Source: a virus (Duplodnaviria; Heunggongvirae; Uroviricota; Caudoviricetes). Taken from it: a DNA stretch of 64,000 bases. Made by a program: the position numbers and the translations under genes. Position 1 is the first letter of the stretch. Each line of letters opens with the position of its first letter. Shown piece by piece: positions 5,266 to 54,884 of the stretch. The notes under the pieces were generated by a model. That model ran no database searches, was not told the DNA's origin, and was given only the letters and a program-made list of their open reading frames with translations. The stretch is taken from the IMG/VR virus record IMGVR_UViG_3300025889_000082, positions 41,348 to 105,347 of that record. One strand, written 5' to 3'.

Positions 5266-7206
5266 TTATTGAATTTCACATGCACCACCAGCACAAGCAG
5301 CCACCTGACCAAACTCTACAGTGTCATCTAGTTCTATCACCTTAGTTAAGTCTATGGCTTTCAATGTGTTAAGTAGCTCATCATATTTCTCCTTAGTGAT
5401 ATCTTCAAATGGAGCTTGTTTGTATGTATGGTCAAATGCAGGTAATACAGATAAGCCATTATACACTTCTCTGTTATCCCACATCCACTGACCTACAGTT
5501 TCCCATTCATCTAATGTGCCATCTTGAGCTAATTTGTATACAGAATCATTTGGTGGAAAACTTCCAATAGGACTAAATTCTGTGTACGTTCTACTTTTAT
5601 CAATAGAAATTGTAGCACTTACATTATGTGTGTTAGGTCCTTCTACATGTCCTGGTTTAATCCATTCTGTGCTGAACTTCTTAACACGCTCTAATGTATC
5701 AATTGCTGTCTCTGTTCTAAGGATAGATCCTTCAGGAGCCTGAACAGGAATTCTTACACAAAGTGTGTCTGTAGGACGTAATACATCATCTTCACATAAC
5801 TCTGGATGATTGATCATTAAATACTGAGCAATGTCTTCATTCTTATTGAATCTCATTGTTCTTAAGTAGTGCTGAGCATGCCATGCATGAATACCACTAG
5901 ATGTACCTAATACAAGACTAGTTGTACCTGATGGTTTAATACATGTAACACGAGCTGCTTCATTAGTTCCAATCATCTCTGAGATTAATTGGTTTGTCTT
6001 TACAGCTATCTTAGCAGCCACTTCTAGGTTGTATTGTAACACCTCACCAGAAGCTATACCAGTCATACCAATACCTAATAAGGCATCTCTGAAGGTTGTC
6101 ATTTTCCATACATCACGTAAGTAGTGGAAGTCTGTAAAGCCAGCCTGTAATGTTCCAAAGAATGCTGCAGCAGTCACTCTGTCATTCAAATCTTCTTGAC
6201 ATGTCACATCTGATACATTCACCTCACATAAGTTACAGAACTGATATGGTCTCAAGGCAATCTCACAACAAGGATTAGTACCCCAGTCTTTGTCATTAGT
6301 CCAGTAGATACCTGGTTCTCCTGAGCCTGAAGCTTCAATACGCTTCCACAAAGAGTCAAACTCTTCTTGACCCACTGAGCCTCTTTCTAAAACAGCTGAG
6401 TTATTAGCTCTACCTCTTTGCTCATTCAATTCCCACCAGTTGCCATACTTACAGGTAATCATTTCCTCATCATCATGACTGAATAAAGCAATCATTGCTG
6501 AACGTCTAATACCTCCTGCTAAGACACTATTAGCTATATGACATAAGATGTCATGACATTCTAATGGTGTTAGTTTCTCTCCATGCTCTTTACGTTCCAT
6601 GATGGCATCAATGTGGCTAAGGCAGATCTTCAATGGTTCTGGACCAGGTGCTTTACCACCTGCAGTGACTAATCTAGCTCCTTTGTGTCTGATAGCTCTG
6701 AAGTCAAACTTAGGCTTCAATCCACCCTCAAAATAGAACTTCATTAACACCTTCACAGCATCAGCCCAGCCCATAATACTGTCTTCAATAAGCCAGTTTC
6801 TGTGCTTATAACGCTCATGCTTAATAATTGTAGGTAGTTGGTCTACGTGGTGTTTTTGTACAGAATAACCTACACCTGTACCTCCTAACAATAGGAACAT
6901 AGTCTCACTGAAGCTATGAACACTATCAATTGGTAGGAAACAACAGTTATAGATACGTGAGTTGTTCACCTCAGCTGCAGCACCTGCAAACTGTAGAGCT
7001 CTCATAGAAGGTAAAACCTTCTTCTTTCTGATAAATGTAGCACTGTCTTTAATTTGTGTCTCTAGATTAGGATACTTTTTCACCATCATGTTTTCATATC
7101 TATCTACTATCTCGTCCCATGTCTCTCTTCTTTTTAGCTCTGGGATGTACTTTGCGTACTTACTAAAAATGGTGATTTTGCTCAAGGCTTCTAATCCTAA
7201 ATCCAT
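5266..7206 (-). CDS. nrdJ: class II (adenosylcobalamin-dependent) ribonucleotide reductase
   Basis: 646-aa monomer-size protein. Active-site finger TNPCCEIAL matches the class II NPCGE motif. C-terminal tail FGQVAACAGGACEIQ carries the reductant-shuttle Cys pair. Confidence 0.75.
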   Translation of the reverse strand: MDLGLEALSKITIFSKYAKYIPELKRRETWDEIVDRYENMMVKKYPNLETQIKDSATFIRKKKVLPSMRALQFAGAAAEVNNSRIYNCCFLPIDSVHSFSETMFLLLGGTGVGYSVQKHHVDQLPTIIKHERYKHRNWLIEDSIMGWADAVKVLMKFYFEGGLKPKFDFRAIRHKGARLVTAGGKAPGPEPLKICLSHIDAIMERKEHGEKLTPLECHDILCHIANSVLAGGIRRSAMIALFSHDDEEMITCKYGNWWELNEQRGRANNSAVLERGSVGQEEFDSLWKRIEASGSGEPGIYWTNDKDWGTNPCCEIALRPYQFCNLCEVNVSDVTCQEDLNDRVTAAAFFGTLQAGFTDFHYLRDVWKMTTFRDALLGIGMTGIASGEVLQYNLEVAAKIAVKTNQLISEMIGTNEAARVTCIKPSGTTSLVLGTSSGIHAWHAQHYLRTMRFNKNEDIAQYLMINHPELCEDDVLRPTDTLCVRIPVQAPEGSILRTETAIDTLERVKKFSTEWIKPGHVEGPNTHNVSATISIDKSRTYTEFSPIGSFPPNDSVYKLAQDGTLDEWETVGQWMWDNREVYNGLSVLPAFDHTYKQAPFEDITKEKYDELLNTLKAIDLTKVIELDDTVEFGQVAACAGGACEIQ

Positions 7207-7227
7207 ACGTTAATTGTTTTAATTTGG

Positions 7228-7263
7228 TTAAATAATAAAGGGCTGCGAATTTACTGCAGCCCT
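7228..7263 (-). terminator. putative terminator (- strand) between the 7292 ORF and nrdJ
   Basis: gggctgc-gaatttact-gcagccc stem followed on the - strand by TTTATTATT. Confidence 0.4.
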
Positions 7264-7291
7264 TTGAAAAAACCAAGAGAATTCAAAAATT

Positions 7292-7543
7292 CTATCTAAC
7301 TAAATTTCTTATTTTGTAACCAAGTTCTGCATCATTTGGATGATCTTTAACTAATTTAGTTATTTCCTTATTTAGAGTCATGATTTTCTCTAAATAAAGA
7401 GTAGCATCCATCAATTCCTCCTGTAAATGTTTAAGATAATTGTCCTTATTGTTAGTTTCTAGGGTGGTACCATACTTGGCTTGTCCCACCTCACTACGCT
7501 TGGCATATTTCTCAATAACAGATAATACTATTTGGTCACTCAT
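7292..7543 (-). CDS. hypothetical all-alpha protein (MazG-like NTP pyrophosphohydrolase?)
   Basis: 83 aa. …KYGTTLE…LQEELMDATLYLEKI loosely resembles MazG EExxE/ELxD helices. Weak assignment. Confidence 0.3.
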   Translation of the reverse strand: MSDQIVLSVIEKYAKRSEVGQAKYGTTLETNNKDNYLKHLQEELMDATLYLEKIMTLNKEITKLVKDHPNDAELGYKIRNLVR

Positions 7544-27468: not shown

Positions 27469-28197
27469 TTATTTTAGTTTAGTAAATAATTCTACTAGTT
27501 TCCCATCTTCTTGAGTGGCTAATATAAATTCTTTCTTATTCTTTTTAAGATTGTCTATAAACTTCTTATGATTATAAGTCTTTGTAGTTCTTAAAAACTT
27601 AACGTATTCTCTAGCAGTATATCTATTGTCGTTTCTAGCCATTCTTGGTATGACTTTTAATAGATCTGTTACATAATCAAGTATTGATACATTAAACTTC
27701 TCATCTACAATCTTAAATTGACCATTCTTAATAGTTCTAACAGTATTACTGCCATCCACTGAACCACCCATTAATATAGTGGCTAATGTAGCAAGATCAA
27801 TGTCATATACCTGATAGTAATGATTAAGCTTTACGTAGTCTTGACTTAATGATGCCCATGCTGTGATGTAGTCTAACATTGTCCAGTTCTTTGAGGATGC
27901 ATTTAATAGTGCAATCTTCTCAACCAAATCTGTTTTATCTTTCACTTCAATTATTACATATGGAATATCCATATTGTTTCTAATCAAAGCATTAAATAAG
28001 TGCTGACCATCAATGATATATAGTTTCTTAATACCATCTACAAATGCTATGTAAGCAACTACAACAGGTCTAATGATACCCATTTTGTTTACTGATTCTG
28101 CTAATTTAGTCACTTGAGCTGGATTAATAGCTCTGTTGATGCCTGCTAAATAACAGAATGATTGTTTGCTGTCTTTCTTTAATATCTGAAGTTTCAT
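27469..28197 (-). CDS. ParB/Srx-like nuclease-domain protein
   Basis: …YLAGINRAINPAQV…KLYIIDGQHLFNAL matches the ParB N-terminal DGxHR box with its preceding beta-strand. Confidence 0.45.
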   Translation of the reverse strand: MKLQILKKDSKQSFCYLAGINRAINPAQVTKLAESVNKMGIIRPVVVAYIAFVDGIKKLYIIDGQHLFNALIRNNMDIPYVIIEVKDKTDLVEKIALLNASSKNWTMLDYITAWASLSQDYVKLNHYYQVYDIDLATLATILMGGSVDGSNTVRTIKNGQFKIVDEKFNVSILDYVTDLLKVIPRMARNDNRYTAREYVKFLRTTKTYNHKKFIDNLKKNKKEFILATQEDGKLVELFTKLK

Positions 28198-28244
28198 GTT
28201 AACTGTGTGTTTTCTTTATTTACTGGAGTTTACTAAGTTTAGAT

Positions 28245-28281
28245 GTAAAAAAGAGCCCCACATTGCTGCAGGGCTCTATCG
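28245..28281 (-). terminator. rho-independent terminator (- strand)
   Basis: gagccc-cacattgctgc-agggctc stem. The - strand reads stem then TTTTTTAC. Confidence 0.5.
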
Positions 28282-28299
28282 TTTACTAACCATAACCAA

Positions 28300-28527
28300 C
28301 TAACCTAGCCTTAATTTATTGTCTTCCCATAATATACTGACATTCAGCTCTTTACACCACTGATTGAACTTTTCACGTTCTTCAGGTGTAAATGGTTTAA
28401 CTGACTTCACTGTAATTTTGGGTCTGTCTTCTGTCTTTTGTTTGCCTTTGAATAGTTCTAATACACTTTTCATAGCTAATTCATTTTCGTTAATAATTGT
28501 TTTATTCTGTTTCATGGTCTGAGTCAT
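28300..28527 (-). CDS. hypothetical protein (start uncertain: 28527, 28515 or 28599)
   Basis: The track ORF 28300..28599 overlaps the upstream gene by 98 nt. Internal Mets at 28527 and 28515 remove the overlap. Confidence 0.3.
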   Translation of the reverse strand: MTQTMKQNKTIINENELAMKSVLELFKGKQKTEDRPKITVKSVKPFTPEEREKFNQWCKELNVSILWEDNKLRLG

Positions 28528-29134: not shown

Positions 29135-29339
29135 AATTTGTTATTTAGATGGTAAATATAATAAAAATAGTTGTTCTGGCACAACTACAAGCCCCCCTGA
29201 TTTCCTTAATCATGTATTTAACGAACAAACCCCATACATACACTCCATGAAAATGCAGGAAACCTATGTCTAGCCCAACCCTGAGGCAAGGGTCAAGGGA
29301 ATGTTTCAAGTGTGTGGGTATATCTTTAGCTTTGGTAAG

Positions 29340-29378
29340 ATGTAAAAAGAACCCCACTGGGGGAAGTGAGGTTCTCTA
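29340..29378 (-). terminator. rho-independent terminator (- strand)
   Basis: agaaccccact-ggggga-agtgaggttct (11-bp stem with one mismatch). The - strand continues TTTTTAC. Confidence 0.5.
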
Positions 29379-29407
29379 ACATACACACAATTACCAACTA
29401 GCCAATA

Positions 29408-29626
29408 TTATTTTATAATGGACATCTCATCTATGTCTCCTTCACTTACAAGGTATAATAATACTGTACCCAAGCAATAGAAGAAATCAACTGATATCCA
29501 TAATGCTGATGTAATAGCAGCATGATACTCAAATGAGAACCATGTAAGCACCATAAAGAATGCTAAAAGAATGTAAGGAATGCTCCATAGGAACATAATG
29601 TTAATTAAATGTTTAATAAGCTTCAT
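29408..29626 (-). CDS. small membrane protein (two TM helices)
   Basis: 72 aa: IMFLWSIPYILLAFFMVLTWF and AITSALWISVDFFYCLGTVLLYLV. Holin-like topology (inference only). Confidence 0.4.
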   Translation of the reverse strand: MKLIKHLINIMFLWSIPYILLAFFMVLTWFSFEYHAAITSALWISVDFFYCLGTVLLYLVSEGDIDEMSIIK

Positions 29627-29656
29627 AACTAATTGATTGTGTTTGTGTTGTGTGTA

Positions 29657-29914
29657 TTAATTGTTATTTTCATTAAATAAACCCATTATCTTCTCATGCT
29701 TGGCTAGGTCAGATAGCATATCATCAGCTGTCATATGCTTCTTTTCCATAAGATATTTCATCATAACCATCTGCATTACAAAGACTAAATAACCCTTAGA
29801 CTCATCTGAAGGGTCATCGTGGTATTTCTCAATACCCATTTCAACCTGTTTTACTAAATGTTTAAATGATAGCACTTCTACCATTGTTGTCATTAAATGA
29901 TCTTGACTGTCCAT
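29657..29914 (-). CDS. hypothetical protein
   Basis: 85-aa ORF. Confidence 0.35.
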   Translation of the reverse strand: MDSQDHLMTTMVEVLSFKHLVKQVEMGIEKYHDDPSDESKGYLVFVMQMVMMKYLMEKKHMTADDMLSDLAKHEKIMGLFNENNN

Positions 29915-30010
29915 TGTTAATTGTATTATTGGTTAATAAATAATGTGTAAAATATACACACATCGCCTTTGGTAAGCATAGAAGGCTAATAATCCTAGAT
30001 GTGTGTGTGT

Positions 30011-30277
30011 TTATTTCTGTTGAGCAATTAATTCTTTTATCTTCTTCTGATGCTTTTCTCTCTCAAACTGAGCATACTCTTCAGTGTGGAATTTAAGCAC
30101 TTTTGTATCATCTGTTCCCTCTGCAGATTCTCTTCCACCATACTTAATCTTACCTAAATGTCCCCAGAAGTACATATCTCTAACCATCTCAATGGCTTCA
30201 AGTTCGTCTTCTGTCTCTCTAATAATCTTGTAACCACATAGTTTATTATTGTGGTCTTTAATAAGTTCTAATTTCAT
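30011..30277 (-). CDS. hypothetical protein
   Basis: 88-aa ORF. Confidence 0.35.
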   Translation of the reverse strand: MKLELIKDHNNKLCGYKIIRETEDELEAIEMVRDMYFWGHLGKIKYGGRESAEGTDDTKVLKFHTEEYAQFEREKHQKKIKELIAQQK

Positions 30278-30879: not shown

Positions 30880-30908
30880 AAAAAAAGGGGCACTTGGCCC
30901 CTTTCTTA
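30880..30908 (-). terminator. rho-independent terminator (- strand)
   Basis: aggggc-cacttg-gcccct stem. The - strand reads stem then TTTTTTTATAC. Confidence 0.55.
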
Positions 30909-31319
30909 TTAATAAGCAACTAACTCATCATAACTAACAGCTTGCTTAACTGTGCTATTGTTAATTACAAACTCTTCTTCTTCGCCACCTTTACCAACTG
31001 GTGCACAGATGGTAGTGATTTTGCCATCAATGCTCTCACAGATGTTAAGGTTTAAGATGGCACCAAGCACATCATTCTTGGTTGCACCATTCTCAAGAGC
31101 TTTCTTAACTGTTGCACTAACACGCTTGCTCAAAGGACAAGTGGTGCTAGTACCATCTTTTAATGTTAATACCATTGACATTGCTTTGATAAGGCCATCA
31201 TTGAACTTAGCAATAGTGCCTGGACAAAACTTAACGCTTCCACCTGCGTGCAAGCTTGCAACTGTTCCCAACTCTGTTAGTCTTGGAGTGCTAACATACT
31301 CTTTGTAAATTAATGCCAT
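30909..31319 (-). CDS. hypothetical protein (start reassigned to MALIYKEY at 31319)
   Basis: First gene of the leftward arm. The track's N-terminal extension reads through the GC-rich switch region and is unlikely. Confidence 0.4.
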   Translation of the reverse strand: MALIYKEYVSTPRLTELGTVASLHAGGSVKFCPGTIAKFNDGLIKAMSMVLTLKDGTSTTCPLSKRVSATVKKALENGATKNDVLGAILNLNICESIDGKITTICAPVGKGGEEEEFVINNSTVKQAVSYDELVAY

Positions 31320-31713
31320 TGTTTTTCGTTTTAGGCTGTTAAAGAATAGGGGGGATGTGTCAATCCCCCATTTGCAGGAGGGGTAGTCAACTGGAAGTAG
31401 GCTCCTCTCCCATGGACACAGCAGGTAGGGGGGATAGGGGAAAATTTTGGGCTGGGCTAGAAAATTTGGAATGTAGTCCAAGCACAGGATTGTTCCACGT
31501 GGAACATTTGTCCAGTTATCACTTGACAAAACTGGACATTTGGTAAAGGTATAACTTGTCTTATAACACCCTTTCAGGTATAAACTTGTCCTTTATATGG
31601 GACATTATAACCTATGGGGTATAAAAATAAATTTGGTTGGTATTGTAAATACCCCTTACCTTTGAGGGTGGAGGGTGGGGAATAAACCCCAGCTTTGACA
31701 AAGACAATATATT

Positions 31714-31965
31714 ATGATAGTATTAGTATTAAAGGTGTTAGCTTGTATCGTTGGGTTGTTGACAGTAATAGTGTTAACAATGGGATTTATGTATTTTGAG
31801 GAATGGGAGATAGGAATAGAGTTATTGCCTAAGGGATATAATAACTTTGAGCTAGGTGTGTCTAACAGAAACTACAACCTAGAGGATGATGGACAGGAGC
31901 AGGAATTGAGGATTGGGCTCTTGTTGTTTACATTTATTGCTGTGTTTAGGAGATTTGACGCATAA
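31714..31965 (+). CDS. possible small membrane protein inside the switch region (doubtful)
   Basis: 83-aa ORF with two hydrophobic helices. Its ATG sits inside a TTGACA-N17-TAGTAT promoter-like element. Confidence 0.2.
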   Translation: MIVLVLKVLACIVGLLTVIVLTMGFMYFEEWEIGIELLPKGYNNFELGVSNRNYNLEDDGQEQELRIGLLLFTFIAVFRRFDA

Positions 31966-32000
31966 TATAGCATTAAAATTTTTAATAACTAAAATAGTTA

Positions 32001-32031
32001 TTTGTAGATAGCCCAGATATACATACCTTTG
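32001..32031 (+). promoter_or_regulatory. Bacteroidetes sigmaA-type promoter of the late arm (TTTG-N19-TAccTTTG)
   Basis: TTTG at 32001-32004, a 19-nt spacer, then TACCTTTG at 32024-32031, which matches the -33/-7 consensus TTTG / TAnnTTTG. ATG of the first late gene is at 32044. Confidence 0.5.
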
Positions 32032-32043
32032 TATCAACTAATT

Positions 32044-32394
32044 ATGGAAACTAAATCAATTGTACAACGACTTAAAACATCTGTTAAGGACAGTGTTGCC
32101 ATGGCTGAGAAGTATTATAGAATACTGTCAGCTGTCAACAACCTTAAACTGACTAATAGGGAGGTGCAATTAATTGCATTTGCTGCTACAAAGGGAAACA
32201 TTTCATATGCTAACATACGTAAGGAATTCTGTGAGAAATATGGAAGCACTCCCCCAGCTATTAATAATATTGTAAGCAAGCTGAAGAAGATGGGTATATT
32301 TATAAAGGATGGGACAAAGGTGAAGGTGAACCCCATCATCCTCCTAAACTTCGAGAAGAATGTTGTCTTACAAATAACTCTTACACATGGATAA
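32044..32394 (+). CDS. winged-helix (MarR-like) transcriptional regulator; ATG at 32044, since the track start at 32029 is a TTG
   Basis: LTNREVQLIAFAATKGNISYANIRKEFCEKYGSTPPAINNIVSKLKKMGIF follows the MarR pattern (LT..E..VL..L…G.IS..ELA..LG.S.S.VS…KKLEEKGLI). Confidence 0.45.
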   Translation: METKSIVQRLKTSVKDSVAMAEKYYRILSAVNNLKLTNREVQLIAFAATKGNISYANIRKEFCEKYGSTPPAINNIVSKLKKMGIFIKDGTKVKVNPIILLNFEKNVVLQITLTHG

Positions 32395-32773
32395 GCCTAT
32401 AAGTATGTCTGTCAAGGACTTCCTTATTAGGACGCTGGCAGTGAAGATGATGGTGTCTGAGAAGACAATTGAGACAGTGGTGAACCACCAGTTTCAGTCA
32501 GCTAACGAGGCAATGGATGTGAACAACAGTTTAGAAATCTCTGGCTTTGGTAAGTTTTATTTCAATGAGAAGAAGGCTAAGAAAAGGCTTCAGGTGTTGG
32601 AAGAGAAGAGAAAAGCCATGCAGAAATATTCAACAGATGAGACGTTGTCTGAACAAAGACGAAAGACGTCCAAGGTGACACTAGAAAAAACAGAAGCTCT
32701 GATCAACTTATTAAAAAACAAGGTGACTTATGAAGATCAACTTCTCCCAGATTTACGAGGGATGGAAGAATAA
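32387..32773 (+). CDS. HU/IHF-family DNA-binding protein
   Basis: …MSVKDFLIRTLAV…KTIETVVNHQFQSANEAMDVNNSLEISGFGKFYFNEKKA… Helix-turn then a beta-arm with the GFGKF signature of Bacteroidetes HU-like proteins. Basic C-terminal extension. Confidence 0.65.
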   Translation: MDKPISMSVKDFLIRTLAVKMMVSEKTIETVVNHQFQSANEAMDVNNSLEISGFGKFYFNEKKAKKRLQVLEEKRKAMQKYSTDETLSEQRRKTSKVTLEKTEALINLLKNKVTYEDQLLPDLRGMEE

Positions 32774-33567: not shown

Positions 33568-33886
33568 AAAAACTACATACATCAACACAGAGCTTGAATG
33601 GGCTGAAGCACAGCTGAAGTCTTGGAAAGCTTATGTAGATGCAAATCCTCTTCATGAACTGAAGGACAGGATTGAATGGAAACCTACAGCTAAGGGTGGA
33701 ATGCTTCCTATGGTCATAGCAAGTATAGAAGCTCAGGGTAAGTTTGTCCAAGAGACAATGAAGAATTACCTAGCGTTAGTAGAAGTGGTTGATAAACTCA
33801 GAAGTGCAGAAGAAGCTAAGGTGGAAGTGAGAGGTAAGGGAGAACTATCTGGAGCAGCTGAAGACTGGCTGAAGAATAGAAAATAA
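33545..33886 (+). CDS. hypothetical protein (candidate small terminase by position)
   Basis: 113-aa coiled-coil-like ORF whose stop overlaps the TerL ATG (TAATG). Confidence 0.35.
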   Translation: MMKMATIKKTTYINTELEWAEAQLKSWKAYVDANPLHELKDRIEWKPTAKGGMLPMVIASIEAQGKFVQETMKNYLALVEVVDKLRSAEEAKVEVRGKGELSGAAEDWLKNRK

Positions 33887-35925
33887 TGGAACTACAAAAT
33901 ATAGATTATAAAGACTGGTTTATTAATCAGAAGCGTCTGCCTGACAAAGATTCAGCAGAATATAAACCTTTCTTTGATTTCCATAAACAACTTTGCTTGG
34001 ATGGTGCAATGATGAATGGGGTGTATATTAACCCTTTTTTATATTGGCATTTAAACATCTGGCACACAGAGGTAGATATTATAGATGATAAAGGACGTAT
34101 ATTTCAAAAATATGCTAATCCTCTACTTAGAGATAATGAATGGCTTGTGACAAATGAAATTGACAGAGCTAATCAAGAAAAGAAAGGCTTAGTCATTCTA
34201 GGTATTAGACGTTTTGCCAAGTCAGTTTTAGAAGCTTCCTATATTGCATGGGGAGCTACATTTGATGAAAACTCACAGAACATCATTGCTGGATTGAATG
34301 CAGCAGATATTAAACTTATTACAGATAAGATTGATAAAGGACTAAACTTTATCCCTGAATATTGGAGATGGCAGAGAGTGGAAGACAACTGGAAAAATCA
34401 GGTTACATTAGGTATCAAGACTAAGGCAGGGGAACGTATTCCCTTCTCTCAAATCTTGATACGTAACTTAGATGAAGGTAATAATGAAGAGGCTATTGCA
34501 GGTACTAAACCACGTAAATTAATTATAGATGAGATTGGTAAAGGTAATTTTCTCAGAGGGTTTCAGGCAGCTGTGCCAGGTTTTACAACTCCATATGGAT
34601 GGGGTTGCTCTCCTATTCTTACAGGTACTGGTGGTGATATGAAGAGATTCATGGATGCTAAATCCTTGATGTTTGATGTAAACAACTATAACTTTTTAGA
34701 TTATAATAATGAAAAGGATGAAAAGCGTATACATGGCTTGTTCATTCCTGCTAAGTATAGAATGGAGGCAAAAGTGGAATCAACACTTGGAGCTTTTCTA
34801 AATGAACCAAAAAACTCAGACTTACATAATATTAAGATGTTAGTAAGTGATGAAGCCAAAGCAAAAGAGATTACAGAAACTAACTTAGAAAGACTTAAGA
34901 AGGCTGGAGATAGAAGTATGTATTTAAAAGAAAAGATGTATTACCCACTTGAAGTGGATGATATATTCTTAAATGAGGATACAAATATATTTGATATAGA
35001 GGCTGCTAAGAGACAGAAATTCAGACTGTTACAACAAGAGAAAACAGGTGTTCCTGTTACATTGTTTCATGATGAAGATAAGATAGGTCATGAGTTTACA
35101 GACAAACAACCTATTACAAATTTTCCTCTTAAGCCTTCAGATTTAAAAGATGCACCTGTAGTAATATATGAATTTCCTATAGAAAATCCACCATATGGAT
35201 TGTATGTAGCTGGAGTTGACCCTTATAGACAGGGTAAATCAGCATATAGCTCCTCATTAGGGGCTGTCTACATTTACAAACGTATGCATGATTTGACAGG
35301 TGAGAAATATCAGGACATGTTCGTAGCATCCTATGTAGCAAGACCTGATAATAAAGATCACTGGAATGAGCAGGCTAGATTGTTAATTAAATATTACAAT
35401 GCTAGAACCTTATGTGAGAATGATGATATATCCTTTATTGAATATATGAAGAGTAAAGGAGATGCTCACCTTTTAGAAAGACAACCTGACTGGTTAAAAG
35501 AAATTGTTCCAAACACCACTGTAAAAAGAGAGTATGGTATACACAGATCTGCACAAAAGATAATTGACTATCTTCACACATGTCTTAAAAAATATATGGA
35601 AAGTCCTATCTTTGTAGAGAAGAATGAAGAAGGTCAGGTGATTAGAGAAGTGCTAGGAGTGAGTAAGATATTTGATCCTGTATTGTTAGAAGAAGTTATA
35701 CAATACAATGACCAAGATAACTTTGATAGAATCATTGCTGCTGAGCTTGCCATAGCACAAGCTTTAAAGATGGACCCTATTATGGGTAAGATAGGTGGCA
35801 CATCTGATGAAAGAGTGGCATCTATGTTTAAGAAAAAAAGAGGAAATGTTCTTTTCACTGAGGCTAGAGCAAATATGTTTGGACAATCTAAAAATAAATA
35901 TAAACGCAATAAATTGTTTTCATAA
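33886..35925 (+). CDS. terL: terminase large subunit
   Basis: 679 aa. Deviant Walker A LVILGIRRFAKSVL. Walker B KLIIDEIGKG. C-terminal RNase-H-like nuclease acidic motif YVAGVDPYRQG. Sits directly before the portal gene. Confidence 0.6.
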   Translation: MELQNIDYKDWFINQKRLPDKDSAEYKPFFDFHKQLCLDGAMMNGVYINPFLYWHLNIWHTEVDIIDDKGRIFQKYANPLLRDNEWLVTNEIDRANQEKKGLVILGIRRFAKSVLEASYIAWGATFDENSQNIIAGLNAADIKLITDKIDKGLNFIPEYWRWQRVEDNWKNQVTLGIKTKAGERIPFSQILIRNLDEGNNEEAIAGTKPRKLIIDEIGKGNFLRGFQAAVPGFTTPYGWGCSPILTGTGGDMKRFMDAKSLMFDVNNYNFLDYNNEKDEKRIHGLFIPAKYRMEAKVESTLGAFLNEPKNSDLHNIKMLVSDEAKAKEITETNLERLKKAGDRSMYLKEKMYYPLEVDDIFLNEDTNIFDIEAAKRQKFRLLQQEKTGVPVTLFHDEDKIGHEFTDKQPITNFPLKPSDLKDAPVVIYEFPIENPPYGLYVAGVDPYRQGKSAYSSSLGAVYIYKRMHDLTGEKYQDMFVASYVARPDNKDHWNEQARLLIKYYNARTLCENDDISFIEYMKSKGDAHLLERQPDWLKEIVPNTTVKREYGIHRSAQKIIDYLHTCLKKYMESPIFVEKNEEGQVIREVLGVSKIFDPVLLEEVIQYNDQDNFDRIIAAELAIAQALKMDPIMGKIGGTSDERVASMFKKKRGNVLFTEARANMFGQSKNKYKRNKLFS

Positions 35926-38518: not shown

Positions 38519-39049
38519 ATGTTTGATAAACTCATTGAGATAATAACTCACTGGTGGTTCCAAATAACCCCAGTGATTATTATCAGAGATTATGAGGAAG
38601 CTGTGCTTCTCAGATTTGGAAAATTTCATGCAGTTCTTAAACCAGGAATGCATGTTAAAATTCCTTTACTAGATGAGGTGATAGATCAACATGTTGTTAT
38701 CACCACTCTAAGTTTAGATGCTCAGTCTTTATATACTATAGACAAGCAGAACATAGTTGTCAAGGGAGTTATCAAATATAAGATATCAGATGTTAAAACA
38801 TTTTTACTTGAGGTGTATGACGCACAGGATGCCCTTGCTGACATGTCTCAAAGCATCATAAAAAATGTTATTATGTCAATGACCCTAGAAGAATGCACTG
38901 ACACAGAATTAGACAACACTTTGACCAAGAAGGTGAGAGTGGAGGCACGTAAGTGGGGTGTTGAAGTTCAACAAGTTACACTTACAGATTTAGCTCCAAT
39001 AAGGAGTTTTAGATTTATAAATGACTCTTTTCTTAACAAATTAGATTAG
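38519..39049 (+). CDS. SPFH/band-7 (stomatin/prohibitin/HflKC) domain protein
   Basis: ITPVIIIRDYEEAVLLRFGKFHAVLKPGMHVKIPLLDEVIDQHVV matches the SPFH core (V.QGE.AVVERFGKY…L.PGLHF.IPFID.V…). Confidence 0.65.
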   Translation: MFDKLIEIITHWWFQITPVIIIRDYEEAVLLRFGKFHAVLKPGMHVKIPLLDEVIDQHVVITTLSLDAQSLYTIDKQNIVVKGVIKYKISDVKTFLLEVYDAQDALADMSQSIIKNVIMSMTLEECTDTELDNTLTKKVRVEARKWGVEVQQVTLTDLAPIRSFRFINDSFLNKLD

Positions 39050-42055: not shown

Positions 42056-42180
42056 TCTAAGAATAGTATTCTTAGACTGACACCACTGGTGTTTCGCAAA
42101 AAACTCAGAAGACATTCCCCCCACCTCCTAGTGGGGGAGTCTTCTAACACAGATGGATGGGTCTAGGCTCCATGTCTGAC
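42056..42180 (+). other. cluster of GC-rich hairpins 3' of the capsid gene (terminator or RNA-stability element)
   Basis: Hairpin tctaagaata-g-tattcttaga (42056-76). Hairpin acaccactggtgt (42080-92). Hairpin gaagacattcccccac-ctccta-gtgggggagtcttc (42108-44). An imperfect fourth hairpin follows. No U-tract. Confidence 0.45.
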
Positions 42181-47283: not shown

Positions 47284-50200
47284 ATGGCTTGTTTACCAGG
47301 AATGCCTTGCTATGGTGCTCAGCAAAAAGAGTGCTGTCCTGAGGTTAATTCAAATTGCGTAGATTATTCTGGACCTAATTTACCTTGTTCAGGTGTGCAA
47401 ACACATGACTGCCTTACCACTGCTATTGAGAAAATAGATGATAAATTGTGTAAGGTGGGGAATGGTACGTCTGGTACATCAGGATCATCAGGTCAAACAT
47501 ATGGAACAGCAGGTACCTCTGGTTCTTCAGGAACTAGTGGAAATGATGGTTCTTCTGGTTCTGCAGGTACTAGTGGTCAAACTGGTACATCAGGGACATC
47601 AGGTAGTTCTGGTAGCTCTGGTAGAACTTATGGTACATCAGGTACCTCTGGAACTTCTGGCTCATCAGGTAGTGCTGGCACTAGTGGTTCTTCTGGATCT
47701 AGTGGATCTAGTGGTTCTTCTGGATCATCAGGTTCATCAGGCACTTCTGCTTCTAGTGGTACTAGTGGATCTTCTGGGTCATCTGGTACTTCTGCAACTT
47801 CAGGATCCAGTGGTTCATCAGGATCAAGTGGATCTTCAGGATCTGCAGGAACTAGTGGTCAAGAAGGTACTTCAGGTTCAAGTGGTTCTTCTGGTATTTC
47901 TGGTGATAGATACTTTACAACATCAGCTGATTCTTTTACATTAGGTAATTCTGGTACATTAACTGTAGGCACAAACCTAGCATATACACCAGGACAATCC
48001 ATTATCATAGCACATGACGCTACCAATTATCAAGTGTCAACAGTATTATCATATAATGCTGGTACAGGTGCATTACAATTTTCTTCTCCTTCCTCAGTAG
48101 TAGGTTCTGGCACATACACTGCTTGGACCATCAACTTACAGGGGGCTGCAGGTGGTGATGGTTCTAGTGGAACTTCAGGTTCTTCTGGAACGTCAGGATC
48201 TAGTGGCTCTTCTGGTAGTAGTGGAACTAATGGTAGTTCAGGAACTAGTGGAACTAATGGTTCAAGTGGAACTAATGGTTCTTCTGGTACTAGTGCCACA
48301 TCTGGTTCTTCTGGTACTGCTGGAACAAGTGCTACATCAGGAAGTTCTGGTTCTTCTGGCACATCTGCCACTGCAGGAACTAGTGGATCTTCTGGCACAA
48401 GTGGTACCAATGGGTCTAGTGGTACAGCAGGATCATCAGGTACATCTGCTTCTTCTGGTACATCAGCAACGTCTGGGTCTAGTGGGTCTTCTGGTACTAG
48501 TGGGTCTTCTGGCTCAAGTGGTACTTCTGCTACTAGTGGTTCTTCTGGTACAGCAGGCACTAGTGGGTCTAGTGGTACAGTTGGCACTAGTGGAACATCA
48601 GGTTCTTCTGGTACTAATGGTTCAAGTGGAACTTCTGGTACTAGTGGTTCATCAGGTACAAGTGCTAGTTCTGGTTCCTCAGGTACAACTGGTACATCAG
48701 GTAGTTCAGGATCTTCAGGTACTAGTGGAACAAGTGGTACAAATGGTAGTTCAGGTACAAATGGATCCAGTGGTACAAATGGTTCTTCTGGTTTATCAGG
48801 AGATAGATATTTAACATCTTCCACAACAACTCTTACAATTGTATCTTCTGGAACAATTACATTTACAGTTGAAACAGGATTAGCATATAGTACATTACAA
48901 ACAGTTATTGTAGTACATGAAAACACCCATTACATGGAAGGAACAGTATTATCATATGATAGTGCTACTGGAGTAATGAGTGTTGATGTTACAAATGGTG
49001 TTGGATTAGGACTAACAGAATCTATGTGGACAGTGAACCTGTTAGGTGCTGCTGGTGGAGATGGCTCTTCAGGAACATCTGGTTCAGCTGGTACTAGTGG
49101 TACGTCTGGATCTTCTGGTTCAACAGGAACTTCTGGAACAACAGGAACTTCTGGCTCTTCTGGAACAAGTGGTTCTTCTGGAACTAGTGCAACTTCTGGT
49201 AGTTCTGGTACGTCTGGAACTAAGGGTACGTCTGGAACTTCAGGCATCAATGGTACCTCTGGTACAAGTGCAACTAGTGGTTCAAGTGGTTCTTCTGGTA
49301 CTTCTGGAACATCAGGTTCTTCTGGCTCATCTGGTACAGCTGGTTCTTCTGGTACATCAGGTACTAAGGGAACATCTGGTACCTCTGCATCATCTGGAAC
49401 GAGTGGTTCATCTGGCACTACAGGAACCTCTGGTACATCAGGCTCAACAGGTACTTCAGGAACAGCAGGATCTAGTGGTACAAGTGCAAGTAGTGGATCA
49501 TCTGGATCAAGTGGAACAACTGGTACTTCAGGATCAAGTGGTATCAATGGTACTTCAGGAACTGCTGGTACATCAGGTTCAACAGGAACATCAGGAACAT
49601 CAGCTACTTCTGGTTCAAGTGGTACAACAGGAACAAGTGGTTCTTCTGGAACAACAGGAACTAGTGGAAGTTCTGGTACTGCTGGATTAAGTGGAGATAG
49701 ATATCAAACAACTTCAACAACTCCTTTCACTCTTGGTAATAATGGTACAATAACAATTGGAACAGGACTTGCTTATACAGCAGCTCAGGTTATTCTTATT
49801 GTATATGATTTAACTCACTATCAAGAGTCTGTAATCATATCTTATAATGCTGGTAGTGGATCTTTGCAATTTGATACTCCTACAAGTACAGTTGGTTCAG
49901 GTACATTTAGTTCTTGGACTGTAAACTTATCTGGTGCTAGTGGTGGAGATGGATCTTCTGGTACATCAGGATCTGCTGGTACTAGTGGAGCAAAAGGTAC
50001 AAGTGGTACTGCAGGCACATCTGGATCTAGTGGTACATCTGCATCTTCAGGATCATCTGGCACTAGTGGAACGTCAGGTTCAAGTGGTACATCAGGTACC
50101 TCTGGTAGTAGTGGTACTTCTGGTACAAAGGGAACTTCTGGTACTTCAGGTGCTAATGGAACCTCTGGTACAGCAGGTACGTCTGGTTCTTCTGGAACAA

Positions 50201-51909
50201 CTGGTACTTCAGGTTCAGCTGGTACTAGTGGAACTAATGGAACAAATGGCTCTAGTGGTACAAGTGGTTTACAAGGTACATCAGGAACAAGTGGAGCAAA
50301 TGGGTCATCAGGCACATCAGGTACTAATGGTTCTAGTGGAACAACAGGTACATCTGGTAGCTCAGGAACAAGTGGAGTTAGTGGTTCCTCTGGTACGTCT
50401 GGTACAAAAGGTACAAGTGGTACTAGTGGTACGAGTGGTTCTAGTGGTACTTCTGGTACATCTGGTTCTAGTGGAACTACTGGTACTAGTGGTAGTAGTG
50501 GAACAAGTGGTACTAGTGGCAGTAGTGGTACTTCTGGTACATCTGGTACAAGTGGTAGTAGTGGAACAAGTGGTACTAGAGGTACATCAGGATCTAGTGG
50601 TACTAGTGGAGCTGGAACTATTAGTGGTACATTGAACTACATAGCTAAGTTCACTCCTAATAGTACCACTGTAGGAAATAGTCAGATTTTTGATAATGGT
50701 ACTAATATTGGCTTTGGTACCAATTCTCCAAGTTACTTTGCTGATTTTCAAGTTAACAATACTTCTTTTGTATCAAGATTTAGAAACTTAAATACAACAA
50801 CTGATAGTGCTGGTTTATTGATTCAGGCAGGTGTTAATTCTGGAAATGAAATATTGCTTTTAAAGAATGCAGCAGGAACAGCAAGAATGGGTGTCTATGC
50901 AAATGGATATGTAGGTCTTGGTACTGAAACTCCTACTGTTAGATTTAATATGGAAAGTTCAGGATCTTCATATTCTGATCCTAGTACAAATGATTGTTCA
51001 ACAATAGCATTATATAACTCAAATAGTTCATCTACCACAGCACATTCAATTCTTTCATTAAGAACAAATCTTGGAACTGGTGGTAATCCTTTTGTATCTT
51101 GGGATATACGTGGTGTTACAGGTTATTCAATGGGTATTGACAATGCTGACTCAGATAAACTTAAAATTGCTGCAACATGGTCTAATGTTGCTAGCTCAAC
51201 AATTCTTACATTTACAACATCTGGTGCTGCAACTTTTGCATCCACTGTAACAGCTTCTTCTTTGATTAAATCAGGTGGTACTAGTTCTCAATTCTTGAAA
51301 GCTGATGGTAGTGTAGATTCAAATACATATTTAACAACATCTTCTGCAGCTTCTACATATGTTGCTAAGAGTGGAGATACAATGACTGGAACATTAAACT
51401 TTTCTAATAACTTAGGAACTTGTTTATATGGTTCTATGGCAGATAATGATCAGTGGAGAATATATGCTGGTAATACAGGAAGCAATGCTGGATATTTAGA
51501 AATAGCTACAGCAGATGATGCTAGTGAACCAATTTATGTAAGACAATATAGTGGTGTGTTTGGTTCTTTGGTAAGAACATTTACATTGTTAGATGGTAGT
51601 GGTAACACTACAATGCCAGGAACTGTAACAGCTACAGCATTCTATGAGTCTTCAGATGCTACATTGAAAAAACTAATTACAGATGATTTCACTGTAGAAG
51701 GAATTGAAAACATTGCATCAAAGCTTTATATAAAAGATGGTAGACAAGAAGTGGGATATTTTGCACAAGATGTTCTACCTTTGTTACCAAATGCTGTTGC
51801 TAAGAATGATGCAGGCATATTAAGTTTATCATATAAGGAAGTGCATACAGCTAAGATAGCTAGACTTGAAAAGAGAGTTAAAGAACTAGAATCTAAATTA
51901 GGAATCTAA
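47284..51909 (+). CDS. giant tail fiber: Cys-rich N-anchor, four proline-free Gly-X-Y (X,Y=Ser/Thr) repeat blocks, three ~90-aa knob domains, distal domain and C-terminal S74 intramolecular-chaperone domain
   Basis: 1541 aa. About 245 G-[ST]-[ST] triplets (…GTSGSSGTSGNDGSSGSAGTSG…). The blocks are separated by three homologous GDRY(F/L/Q)T(T/S)S… knob domains. C-terminus is …YESSDATLKKLITDDFTVEGIENIASKLYIKDGRQEVGYFAQDV…, which matches the endosialidase/T5-LTF autocleaving chaperone (S-DxRLKK…). Confidence 0.7.
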   Translation: MACLPGMPCYGAQQKECCPEVNSNCVDYSGPNLPCSGVQTHDCLTTAIEKIDDKLCKVGNGTSGTSGSSGQTYGTAGTSGSSGTSGNDGSSGSAGTSGQTGTSGTSGSSGSSGRTYGTSGTSGTSGSSGSAGTSGSSGSSGSSGSSGSSGSSGTSASSGTSGSSGSSGTSATSGSSGSSGSSGSSGSAGTSGQEGTSGSSGSSGISGDRYFTTSADSFTLGNSGTLTVGTNLAYTPGQSIIIAHDATNYQVSTVLSYNAGTGALQFSSPSSVVGSGTYTAWTINLQGAAGGDGSSGTSGSSGTSGSSGSSGSSGTNGSSGTSGTNGSSGTNGSSGTSATSGSSGTAGTSATSGSSGSSGTSATAGTSGSSGTSGTNGSSGTAGSSGTSASSGTSATSGSSGSSGTSGSSGSSGTSATSGSSGTAGTSGSSGTVGTSGTSGSSGTNGSSGTSGTSGSSGTSASSGSSGTTGTSGSSGSSGTSGTSGTNGSSGTNGSSGTNGSSGLSGDRYLTSSTTTLTIVSSGTITFTVETGLAYSTLQTVIVVHENTHYMEGTVLSYDSATGVMSVDVTNGVGLGLTESMWTVNLLGAAGGDGSSGTSGSAGTSGTSGSSGSTGTSGTTGTSGSSGTSGSSGTSATSGSSGTSGTKGTSGTSGINGTSGTSATSGSSGSSGTSGTSGSSGSSGTAGSSGTSGTKGTSGTSASSGTSGSSGTTGTSGTSGSTGTSGTAGSSGTSASSGSSGSSGTTGTSGSSGINGTSGTAGTSGSTGTSGTSATSGSSGTTGTSGSSGTTGTSGSSGTAGLSGDRYQTTSTTPFTLGNNGTITIGTGLAYTAAQVILIVYDLTHYQESVIISYNAGSGSLQFDTPTSTVGSGTFSSWTVNLSGASGGDGSSGTSGSAGTSGAKGTSGTAGTSGSSGTSASSGSSGTSGTSGSSGTSGTSGSSGTSGTKGTSGTSGANGTSGTAGTSGSSGTTGTSGSAGTSGTNGTNGSSGTSGLQGTSGTSGANGSSGTSGTNGSSGTTGTSGSSGTSGVSGSSGTSGTKGTSGTSGTSGSSGTSGTSGSSGTTGTSGSSGTSGTSGSSGTSGTSGTSGSSGTSGTRGTSGSSGTSGAGTISGTLNYIAKFTPNSTTVGNSQIFDNGTNIGFGTNSPSYFADFQVNNTSFVSRFRNLNTTTDSAGLLIQAGVNSGNEILLLKNAAGTARMGVYANGYVGLGTETPTVRFNMESSGSSYSDPSTNDCSTIALYNSNSSSTTAHSILSLRTNLGTGGNPFVSWDIRGVTGYSMGIDNADSDKLKIAATWSNVASSTILTFTTSGAATFASTVTASSLIKSGGTSSQFLKADGSVDSNTYLTTSSAASTYVAKSGDTMTGTLNFSNNLGTCLYGSMADNDQWRIYAGNTGSNAGYLEIATADDASEPIYVRQYSGVFGSLVRTFTLLDGSGNTTMPGTVTATAFYESSDATLKKLITDDFTVEGIENIASKLYIKDGRQEVGYFAQDVLPLLPNAVAKNDAGILSLSYKEVHTAKIARLEKRVKELESKLGI
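47440..50620 (+). repeat. intragenic near-perfect 9/18-nt tandem repeats (ggt-ac/tc-t/agt) encoding the Gly-Ser/Thr triplets
   Basis: A 3-nt periodic, low-complexity region. It produces long spurious ORFs in all other frames on both strands. Confidence 0.8.
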
Positions 51910-54708: not shown

Positions 54709-54770
54709 AAAAACCCCTGTTTGTTGGTTTACAGATGGTCTCCCCTAGGGTCTCTACCCTGGGGGTTTTT
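54709..54770 (+). terminator. GC-rich stem-loop with flanking A and T tracts (terminator-like)
   Basis: aaaacccc…(ccctaggg internal palindrome)…ggggttttt. Confidence 0.35.
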
Positions 54771-54794
54771 ATTTAAAATCTAACTAAAAAAGTT

Positions 54795-54856
54795 ATTGCA
54801 TATAACCAAAATAGTTAACTTATTTTTGGGAAATTCAAAAATAGTTCCTACCTTTA
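54795..54856 (+). promoter_or_regulatory. Bacteroidetes-type promoter candidates upstream of ORF 54885
   Basis: TTTG (54825-28), a 20-nt spacer, then TACCTTTA (54849-56). An overlapping alternative is TTG (54795-97), a 23-nt spacer, then TATTTTTG (54821-28). Confidence 0.35.
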
Positions 54857-54884
54857 CATCAATTTTAACTAAACTTAACTCTAT

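Follow-up and report, generated by a model that had tools for sequence, protein, structure and literature searches.

The 64,000-nucleotide stretch studied here (the window) is part of the genome of an uncultured crAss-like (Crassvirales-related) phage (IMG/VR record IMGVR_UViG_3300025889_000082, positions 41,348 to 105,347), about 41 kb of which lies outside it. We analysed the region at positions 31320–32043 (window numbering is used throughout), where two gene blocks diverge and where a parS-type palindrome lies among predicted promoters and operator-like repeats. The leftward block (minus strand, left of 31319) encodes RNR, rIIA/B, a DnaB-like helicase, DNA polymerase, RecA, a ParB-like protein and many small open reading frames (ORFs). 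Counted from the switch, the small variable genes come first, followed by the ParB-like, DNA polymerase, helicase, rII and RNR genes. The rightward block (plus strand, right of 31714) encodes a winged-helix protein, an HU/IHF-like protein, terminase, portal, the major head protein and tail fibres. The product of the large terminase gene (33886–35925) shares 41% identity with the terminase of Leptolyngbya phage Lbo-JY46 and 32% with those of Cellulophaga phages phi4:1 and phi17:2, and shows weaker similarity to crAss-like gut phages. The identical strain was found in several freshwater or estuarine metagenomes, with contigs up to 105 kb, and a blastn search of the region against 50,697 phage records gave no match. 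The features of the locus are collected in Table 1.

Table 1. Genes and sequence elements at and near the divergence point (window coordinates).
Feature	Position	Strand	Description
ParB/Noc-like gene	27469–28197	−	242 aa; 3.3 kb left of parS; candidate binder of parS or of the 18-bp dyads
Intrinsic terminator	30884–30911	−	stop codons of the first leftward gene, then AAAGGGGCcaagtGCCCCTTT and a run of T
First leftward gene	30909–31319	−	136 aa; no family match
M1	31349–31369	+	G6...C5 hairpin-forming element, 30–50 nt from the leftward start codon
M2	31377–31419	+	GGAGGGG-N9-GGAAGTAGGCTCCTCTCCCATGGACAC; family consensus GGGGTT-N6-8-GGAAGTAnCCTCCCCTCCCATGnACA
A/T palindromic module	31441–31467		AAAATTTT / AAAATTT; after M2 in all clades, e.g. 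CCAAATTTTGAAAATTTTGG in L060 and L069
parS-type palindrome	31491–31506		TGTTCCACGTGGAACA; perfect, 16 bp
Inverted repeat	31509–31538		TGTCCAGTT (31509–31517)-N12-AACTGGACA (31530–31538); TTGACA in the spacer
18-bp quasi-palindrome unit	31543–31560	−	GTAAAGGTATAACTTGTC; 2 mismatches to the family consensus GTMAAGnTATAGnTTKAC
Second 18-bp unit, degenerate	31573–31590		TTCAGGTATAAACTTGTC; aligns with the third unit of L003, GTCAAGTTATAGGTTGTC
Inverted repeat	31616–31655		GGGGTAT-N26-ATACCCC; brackets the −33 box of P1
P1 (predicted promoter)	31624–31680	+	A-tract; −33 TTTG 31632–31635; 21-nt spacer; −7 TACCTTTG 31657–31664; predicted start ~31669
G-rich stretch	31666–31680	+	GGGTGGAGGGTGGGG; first transcribed bases of predicted P1; conserved
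ORF83	31714–31965	+	83 aa; two predicted hydrophobic/transmembrane segments; optional gene between P1 and P2
Conserved box	31960–31974	+	GCATAATATAGCATT; nearly invariant in 12 aligned relatives, including those without ORF83
Inverted repeat	31984–32002	+	AATAACTA-N3-TAGTTATT; overlaps the −33 box of P2
P2 (predicted promoter)	32001–32043	+	−33 TTTG 32001–32004; 19-nt spacer; −7 TACCTTTG 32024–32031; predicted start ~32036
Winged-helix gene	32044–32394	+	116 aa; first gene of the conserved rightward block
HU/IHF-like gene	32387–32773	+	Pfam Bac_DNA_binding, 6.3e-8

A sequence-only reading had described the region as about 720 bp of non-coding DNA that separates all minus-strand from all plus-strand genes. 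It is not non-coding throughout: the conserved 83-codon gene ORF83, which public gene calls include, occupies one third of it, and the truly non-coding parts are 31320–31713 and 31966–32043. The region is indeed the divergence point of the two gene blocks, but the division is not complete, for the strand switches again, convergently, near 1.3 kb, as indicated by a plus-strand ORF (565–972), by positive GC skew and by a hairpin at 1332, so that the minus-strand block spans only about 30 kb (1356–31319).

On re-inspection, every repeat element listed in the sequence-only reading was present. The 14-bp palindrome GTTCCACGTGGAAC was found at 31492–31505 and is the core of a longer perfect palindrome of 16 bp. 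The perfect 9-bp arms around TTGACA were also found, with a spacer of 12 nt rather than 13. The repeated units lie 29–30 bp apart (AGGTATAA at 31547 and 31576, CTTGTC at 31555 and 31585), and GGGGTAT (31616–31622) and ATACCCC (31649–31655) are separated by 26 nt. The non-coding part was GC-elevated as described, and 6 of the 47 runs of at least four G in the window fall within 31320–31720. When the window was searched for further copies, the palindrome proved to be single-copy, and the 15-mer pattern of the repeated units gave 1 site versus 0.84 expected by chance. The density of inverted repeats ranked the tile of this region about fifth of some 320 tiles, as one of several rich tiles. By window-internal statistics, only the palindrome clearly exceeds chance. 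The densest perfect inverted repeats of the window lie at 7206–7540 (e.g. AAAGGGCTGC-N9 and TTATTTAGAG-N10).

Relatives of the phage were collected from IMG/VR (253 in total), and 80 of the 253, with terminases 78–100% identical and contigs up to ~118 kb, were retrieved (labels L0xx; L335–L394 are more distant family members). The comparison covered about 60 relatives with terminases 78–87% identical, and the parS count rests on 59 non-redundant ones, with loci of 10–18 kb each. The right-hand genes are conserved in all relatives (the winged-helix protein at 44–84% identity), and the left-hand genes are largely unrelated between genomes. Despite this variation, the intergenic plan is fixed. 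From left to right it consists of the start codon of whichever gene comes first on the leftward side, ~35 A/T-rich nt, the M1 G5-6/C4-5 hairpin element, M2, the AAAATTTT module, a variable zone of dyad-symmetric cassettes, promoter P1, the G-rich stretch, an optional small gene or a ~150-nt leader, a conserved GCATAATATAGCA box, promoter P2 and the winged-helix gene. Conservation in the relatives shows where function is likely to lie, and it supports the palindrome, the TGTCCAGTT inverted repeat and the repeat units. A tRNA scan found none, and an Rfam search at a permissive E-value gave chance-level matches only. Among the near-identical strains L081–L086 the length of the G runs was invariant, with no sign of phase variation.

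The palindrome TGTTCCACGTGGAACA is unique in the window even with 2 mismatches allowed (0.02 expected). It agrees with the parS consensus TGTTNCACGTGAAACA at each of the 14 specified positions, and it is identical at 15 of 16 positions to the parS of Myxococcus xanthus, TGTTCCACGTGGAACG (PMC7022226, review). A site with at most 2 mismatches was detected in the switch regions of 27 of the 59 non-redundant relatives, versus 0.4% of shuffles. The variant sites, too, are of canonical parS form (TGTTCCACGTGAAACA in L036; GTTTCACGTGAAAC cores in L017 and L030), and symmetric double changes such as TTTCACGTGAAA keep the dyad and stay within the parS consensus. Among more distant relatives, whose ParB-like proteins are 49–64% identical, perfect parS sites were found in non-coding DNA otherwise unlike this region (L339, L374/L375, L394). 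The site had been read as a symmetric operator; its sequence is that of parS, and since the parS consensus is kept in relatives with unrelated surroundings, ParB is a better candidate ligand than a private repressor. We therefore regard the palindrome as a host-type parS and as a predicted ParB loading site. Elsewhere in the window, the repeat-rich tail-fibre gene (47284–51909; ~43% GC; one PHROG match, 'collagen like minor tail') contains TGGTTCAAGTGGAAC-like words with 3 mismatches to parS, which are coding repeats and not parS sites.

The position of the site in other genomes is also informative. In L027, L050 and L051, which have no switch-region site, an SPFH/band-7-like gene contains a perfect parS core (GTTTCACGTGAAAC or GTTCCACGTGAAAC); the core is also present in this gene of L053, whose contig is cut before the switch site. 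The core (GGG TTC CAC GTG AAA CTC, encoding GFHVKL) lies at ~12737–12752 in L027, and the equivalent place in the window is ~38650, in the gene at 38519–39049. Every genome with a switch-region site has at least 7 mismatches at this position. Because a parS core occurs in the SPFH gene where the switch-region site is missing, these data suggest selection for a parS site somewhere in the genome.

The exact 16-mer was also searched in 185,579 species genomes. The total count was uninformative, with ~140 chance matches expected, and only multi-copy clusters were used. Among the matches listed, 5 copies lie within 3.6 kb around gidA/mnmG in Chitinophaga solisilvae, 2 copies flank gidA in an Algibacter genome (gidA confirmed) and 2 copies lie 43 bp apart in a Chitinophagales genome. 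Because of the multi-copy clusters around gidA, the exact 16-mer is taken, from sequence, as an origin-proximal centromere sequence in Bacteroidota, which is the phylum indicated by the promoters described below.

A different explanation is that phage regulators, for example the winged-helix protein, use the palindrome and the repeats as private operators, and that the likeness to parS arose by chance. Sites with dyad symmetry are suitable for dimeric regulators, the first downstream gene is that of the winged-helix protein, and the predicted recognition helix of this protein is different in the clade where both the palindrome and the 18-bp units are missing. We consider this explanation improbable, since a perfect match at the 14 parS positions is expected by chance in only ~2e-4 of 64-kb windows (our own arithmetic) and the variants in relatives remain inside the parS consensus. 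Moreover, perfect sites recur with unrelated flanks and inside a gene, which is not expected of a promoter-bound operator.

Two predicted promoters, P1 and P2, lie between the palindrome and the rightward block. Bacteroidota promoters are characterized by a −33 TTTG box and a spacer of 19–21 nt, as known from work on promoters of Bacteroides and Flavobacterium. In Flavobacterium, the −7 box of sigma-A, TAnnTTTG, spans −12 to −5 (PMC9723704). In both P1 and P2 the two boxes are exact and on the same strand as the downstream genes. The full pattern occurred 6 times in the window versus 1.9 expected, and 6 of 6 occurrences were co-oriented with the local genes. In the relatives, P1 takes the form AAAAATAAA-TTTG-N21-TA(A/C)CTTTG, with an almost invariant 21-nt spacer in most members of the main clade. 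P2 takes the form TTTG-N19/20-TA(T/C)CTTTG, and TAnnTTTG was found 12–35 nt before the winged-helix start codon in essentially every relative. The predicted leader of P2 is only ~8 nt long. P1 and P2 are thus predicted to be Bacteroidota-type host sigma-A promoters, and because of this TTTG/TAnnTTTG grammar the host is probably a member of the Bacteroidota. Together they would drive ORF83 and the operon of winged-helix, HU/IHF-like, terminase, portal and structural genes. A further near-consensus promoter of this type (TTTTGG-N19-TACCTTTA) was noticed at 54740–54860, after a terminator hairpin (CCCTAGGGTCTCTACCCTGGGGG and a T run) and ahead of the gene at 54885.

Other promoter candidates were rejected. 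A sigma-70 scan gave no more hits than shuffles. The TTGACA box at 31523, which the sequence-only reading had singled out, is not conserved, sits in the variable spacer of the inverted repeat and is not part of any conserved promoter, and TTGACA-N17-TAGTAT at 31695 runs into the start codon of ORF83. As a candidate promoter motif across the genome, CATAATATAGCAT gave 50 matches versus 53 expected.

In the relatives L002–L080 the G-rich stretch after P1 reads GGGGCGGTTGGGTGGG, GGGGGGGATTTAGGGGGGG or GGTGGGTGGGTGGG. It resembles G-quadruplex-forming sequences such as the c-MYC Pu element, yet one of its tracts is only GG, and a search of the window for the canonical G-quadruplex motif with four G3 tracts found none. 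Further downstream, ORF83 is 70–73% identical at the amino acid level in L002 and L003 and ~40% identical in L010, L042 and L049, and its polymorphism in the near-identical strain L084 preserves the frame. The GCATAATATAGCATT box at its end showed no enrichment elsewhere in the window.

The product of the winged-helix gene had been called MarR-like. No Pfam MarR match was found at E ≤ 0.1, and a profile search against PDB sequences gave nothing significant, but the AlphaFold2 model (predicted local distance difference test score, pLDDT, 66; core ~80) shows a winged-helix fold with three helices (H-H-H) and a beta wing. Its fold matches are weak and mixed (Zur, T4 MotA N-domain, OhrR/MarR and NtcA; E 0.008–0.1), and its Pfam hits to Sigma70_r1_1, HTH_Mga and Phage_rep_O are sub-threshold. 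On this medium-confidence model, the 116-aa protein is a generic winged helix. The HU-like call for the next gene was confirmed by its Pfam match.

The variable zone upstream of P1 contains two kinds of dyad-symmetric elements. The first is the TGTCCAGTT inverted repeat, whose arms are kept and whose spacers are changed in L010, L013 and L042; in other relatives, cassettes of this format have different sequences, such as TGCATGAA...TTCATGCA and GTGTCACA...TGTGACAC. The second is the 18-bp quasi-palindrome, of which the 'GGTATAA...CTTGTC' units are diverged copies. When its consensus was scanned, with palindromic sites counted on both strands, 100 hits were obtained in 58 kb of switch regions versus 10 in 1,047 kb outside, which is a ~180-fold enrichment. 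The units are usually paired, 32–34 bp apart (about three helical turns) and directly upstream of P1, and the pair is sometimes inverted. In some of the more distant relatives, a dyad pair 33 bp apart is found across the ParB-like gene, 1.5–2.5 kb beyond it (L335 3830/3863, L340 4468/4501, L364 5983/6016), so the pair moves relative to that gene. The GGGGTAT/ATACCCC pair was absent from the relatives; it is either lineage-specific or a chance match, and as a hairpin it was rejected for lack of conservation.

The paired 18-bp dyads and the inverted repeats look like operators of dimeric regulators rather than directly repeated iterons, judging from their arrangement. The 18-bp dyads and the TGTCCAGTT inverted repeat may serve as operators for dimeric phage regulators that tune P1, with the winged-helix and the ParB-like proteins as candidates. 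The predicted recognition helix of the winged-helix protein, INNIISKLKK, is nearly invariant in the main clade and reads VNNMVSKLKK in the clade without the palindrome and the 18-bp units. This difference is a weak hint that the winged-helix protein may bind these sites.

The repeats had also been proposed to mark a replication origin with the GGTATAA units as iterons. In this explanation the 18-bp units would be bound by an initiator, possibly the winged-helix protein, with bending by the HU/IHF-like protein; it is compatible with a promoter hub. The cumulative GC skew has its minimum at 30–31 kb, but the skew flips exactly where gene orientation flips and is confounded, hence this minimum cannot locate an origin. 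The winged-helix protein has weak hits to initiators (Pfam Phage_rep_O, 0.0046; PHROG 'replication initiation O-like', 0.039), but these are below curated thresholds. For the prototypic crAssphage, the strand switch has been predicted to hold an origin (PMC10983915), and parS is origin-proximal in bacteria (PMC7022226). At 30.5–32.6 kb, however, no DnaA box was found at ≤1 mismatch, no AT-rich unwinding element was found, with all 40-nt windows of the region below the 99th percentile of AT content, and the non-coding part is GC-elevated. The iterons of phage lambda are also dyad-symmetric repeats, which counts for an origin, but the units here are paired and often inverted, with no array of at least three direct repeats, and whole clades with the same replication genes lack them. 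Taken together, an origin at this place is unlikely; that we do not rate it lower is partly because, to our knowledge, the origins of crAss-type phages are undefined.

The 242-aa protein encoded 3.3 kb to the left of the palindrome is the phage candidate for a ParB-type ligand. It matched the PHROG 'ParB-like partition protein' (4e-16) and, below the curated cut-off, Pfam ParB_N (6.7e-5). The best Foldseek PDB matches of its AlphaFold2 model (pLDDT 85) were Noc, ParB, Spo0J and KorB. They span the N-terminal and DNA-binding domains over 200–250 columns (E 1e-4 to 3e-2), and in the model a ParB-type N-terminal domain is joined to a helical DNA-binding domain, as in the ParB family. Within the phage family the gene belongs to the core set, with 548 homologues. 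No covariation of the gene or its clades with parS or the 18-bp dyads was established, for a core gene and with short flanks. In a cell that contains ParB, a canonical parS is expected to be ParB-bound owing to the affinity of ParB for parS. For this reason host ParB is at least as likely a ligand of the site as the phage protein.

Several observations weigh against a parS-containing control region of this kind. About half of the relatives have no parS in the 10–18 kb examined, and the site is either not universal or elsewhere in those genomes. Canonical parS 16-mers are frequent in IMG/VR at large, near a rough chance expectation (among the matches listed). The phage has a single parS, unlike the clusters on chromosomes. 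The parS core in the SPFH gene possibly reflects a single evolutionary event and may be a by-product of the peptide motif GFHVKL. As to the 242-aa protein, the GERRxRA arginine patch is absent and replaced by DGQHLFNA, in which D63, G64, Q65 and H66 are invariant, so that CTP binding is doubtful. A profile search against PDB sequences detected no similarity to solved ParB proteins. No ParA, CbiA or AAA_31 match was found among the window ORFs tested, with ~41 kb of the genome outside the window; the ParA partner of a complete ParABS system is thus missing from the window. Finally, the window has one good and one degenerate 18-bp unit, 30 bp apart, instead of the canonical 33-bp pair.

On the leftward side, the gene in first position varies among relatives, and homologues of the one found here were 44–50% identical in L062, L063 and L076. 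Several relatives have different first genes that share the N-terminus MAL..Y.R..R.ELGTV. The product is possibly an abundant early protein. The strong terminator that follows the first leftward gene delimits a one-gene transcription unit. Upstream of it, M1 is found at the same place in nearly all relatives, and M2 is single-copy with fixed orientation; most relatives carry M2 at ≤4 mismatches (45 loci), the most divergent clade included, and it never occurred elsewhere in the relatives' loci of 10–18 kb. Since RNAalifold gave no compensatory changes in M1–M2 (0 of 7 predicted pairs) and no Rfam match was found, a structured RNA was rejected, and M1–M2 was treated as a DNA-level signal or a sequence-conserved leader.

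M1–M2 (31349–31419) would thus be the promoter or leader of the leftward unit, a short early unit terminated after one gene. No TAnnTTTG was seen by eye on the minus strand upstream of the first leftward gene, where no scan was made. Because no host-type −7 box was seen there, the leftward unit is likely to be transcribed by a different polymerase or factor. The DFDxD motif of virion RNA polymerases was not found in any long ORF of the window, so a virion polymerase for this unit is an analogy only. Further to the left, at 28200–28300, 29140–29400 and 29620–30015, the small leftward genes are separated by terminator hairpins, followed by TTTTTACATC and ACACACA-rich leaders. This arrangement suggests many short early transcription units.

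The region was also considered as a packaging initiation site (pac/cos) or genome terminus, with a small-terminase-like winged-helix protein and HU/IHF-like bending, as in lambda cosB. The large terminase gene lies 1.8–2.5 kb downstream of it and shares an operon with the winged-helix and IHF-like genes, and the contig ends of the relatives are ~3-fold enriched 1.6–2.7 kb upstream of the terminase gene, several of them inside the region. However, these ends differ in position and lie mostly at G/C homopolymer runs or at the border of conserved and variable sequence, as assembly breaks do. Contigs L003, L005, L021, L043, L053 and L065 start or end in G or C runs, and the window equivalent of these ends is 31380–31680. 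Near-complete contigs of 104–118 kb break at many other places, and the window and several long contigs read straight through. The enrichment therefore probably reflects assembly or sequencing breakage, coverage drop-outs or strain heterogeneity and not a terminus, and a packaging site here is very improbable. A hairpin CCCCCC...GGGGG was noticed at 42117–42137, on the 3′ side of the major head gene.

In conclusion, our results suggested that the region is a real, conserved divergent transcription-control hub of a crAss-like phage, parS included, with a probability of roughly 0.6. The control region proposed in the sequence-only reading was thereby borne out in outline, with conserved promoters and several sites under selection between the leftward and rightward blocks. 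ParB would load at 31491–31506, and it may be the host chromosomal ParB, for which the site is copied exactly, or the phage ParB/Noc-like protein. A ParB complex at the unit boundary could position, condense or partition phage DNA in a non-lytic or carrier phase. Alternatively or in addition, it could damp the neighbouring promoters, as does KorB of plasmid RK2, a clamp of the ParB family whose palindromic sites serve for promoter repression (PMC11790492), and as does ParB next to parS3/parS4 in Pseudomonas aeruginosa (PMC5521831).

A more far-reaching proposal, which we put forward as tentative and consider possible rather than probable, is that a large family of uncultured crAss-like phages of Bacteroidota, without integrase, keeps a single copy of the host chromosomal centromere parS, that host ParB (with ParA and SMC) loads on the phage genome and that the phage ParB/Noc-like protein modulates this loading. 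If so, phage DNA would be positioned and inherited as an episome in a carrier state, or host segregation would be titrated and disturbed, and a site lost from the control region would be re-created elsewhere, even in coding sequence. In the literature searched, we found no account of a crAss-related, mostly lytic-looking phage family in which selection maintains a host-type parS. If ParB does load, this would offer a testable mechanism for crAss-like persistence without lysogeny and a new case of viral use of the machinery that segregates bacterial chromosomes.

In phages, divergent promoter regions that contain operators are commonplace; the parS takes this one beyond routine intergenic DNA and gives a lead on the interaction of the family with the host partition system. 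In addition, the TTTG/TAnnTTTG grammar gives a probable host phylum to a phage group known only from metagenomes, and M1–M2 is a candidate early promoter or leader in a group whose early promoters have escaped definition.

The locus can be compared with several known systems. In lambda ori (O protein) and cosB (gpNu1, IHF), dyad repeats of 18–19 bp likewise lie near winged-helix and IHF-like genes, whereas the window has 1–2 units, the pairs of the relatives are often inverted, there is no AT-rich unwinding element and the similarity to O is sub-threshold. The promoter arrangement is similar to that of phi14:2, a crAss-like phage of Cellulophaga, in which middle and late genes, including the IHF-like gene, are transcribed from promoters of the host RNA polymerase and early transcripts, made by the virion polymerase, share no common motif (Drobysheva et al., 10.1101/2020.03.07.982082). 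Here too, host-type promoters lie upstream of IHF-like and structural genes, and the early genes have no recognisable host motif. However, phi14:2 belongs to a separate, distantly related lineage with mapped promoters, whereas the promoters here are predicted from sequence and consist of plain TTTG/TAnnTTTG boxes and a conserved G-rich stretch. P1 and P2 match Bacteroidota sigma-A promoters in both boxes and in their 19–21-nt spacers, and differ from them in the ~8-nt leader of P2 and the conserved G-rich stretch after P1.

With KorB-OB of plasmid RK2 and ParB at parS3/parS4 of P. aeruginosa, the locus shares a palindromic ParB-family site beside promoters, and the fold of the 242-aa protein also matches KorB; the site here is a chromosomal parS and not OB, no KorA-like partner was identified and a regulatory effect would be by likeness. 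Compared with the chromosomal ParABS system, the site is a single phage copy between divergent promoters, with no ParA found in the window and a highly divergent encoded ParB relative that has no GERR. Nevertheless, the 16-mer of the window fits parS at all 14 positions, is a perfect palindrome one base from the M. xanthus site, and is the same 16-mer that lies around gidA in Bacteroidota.

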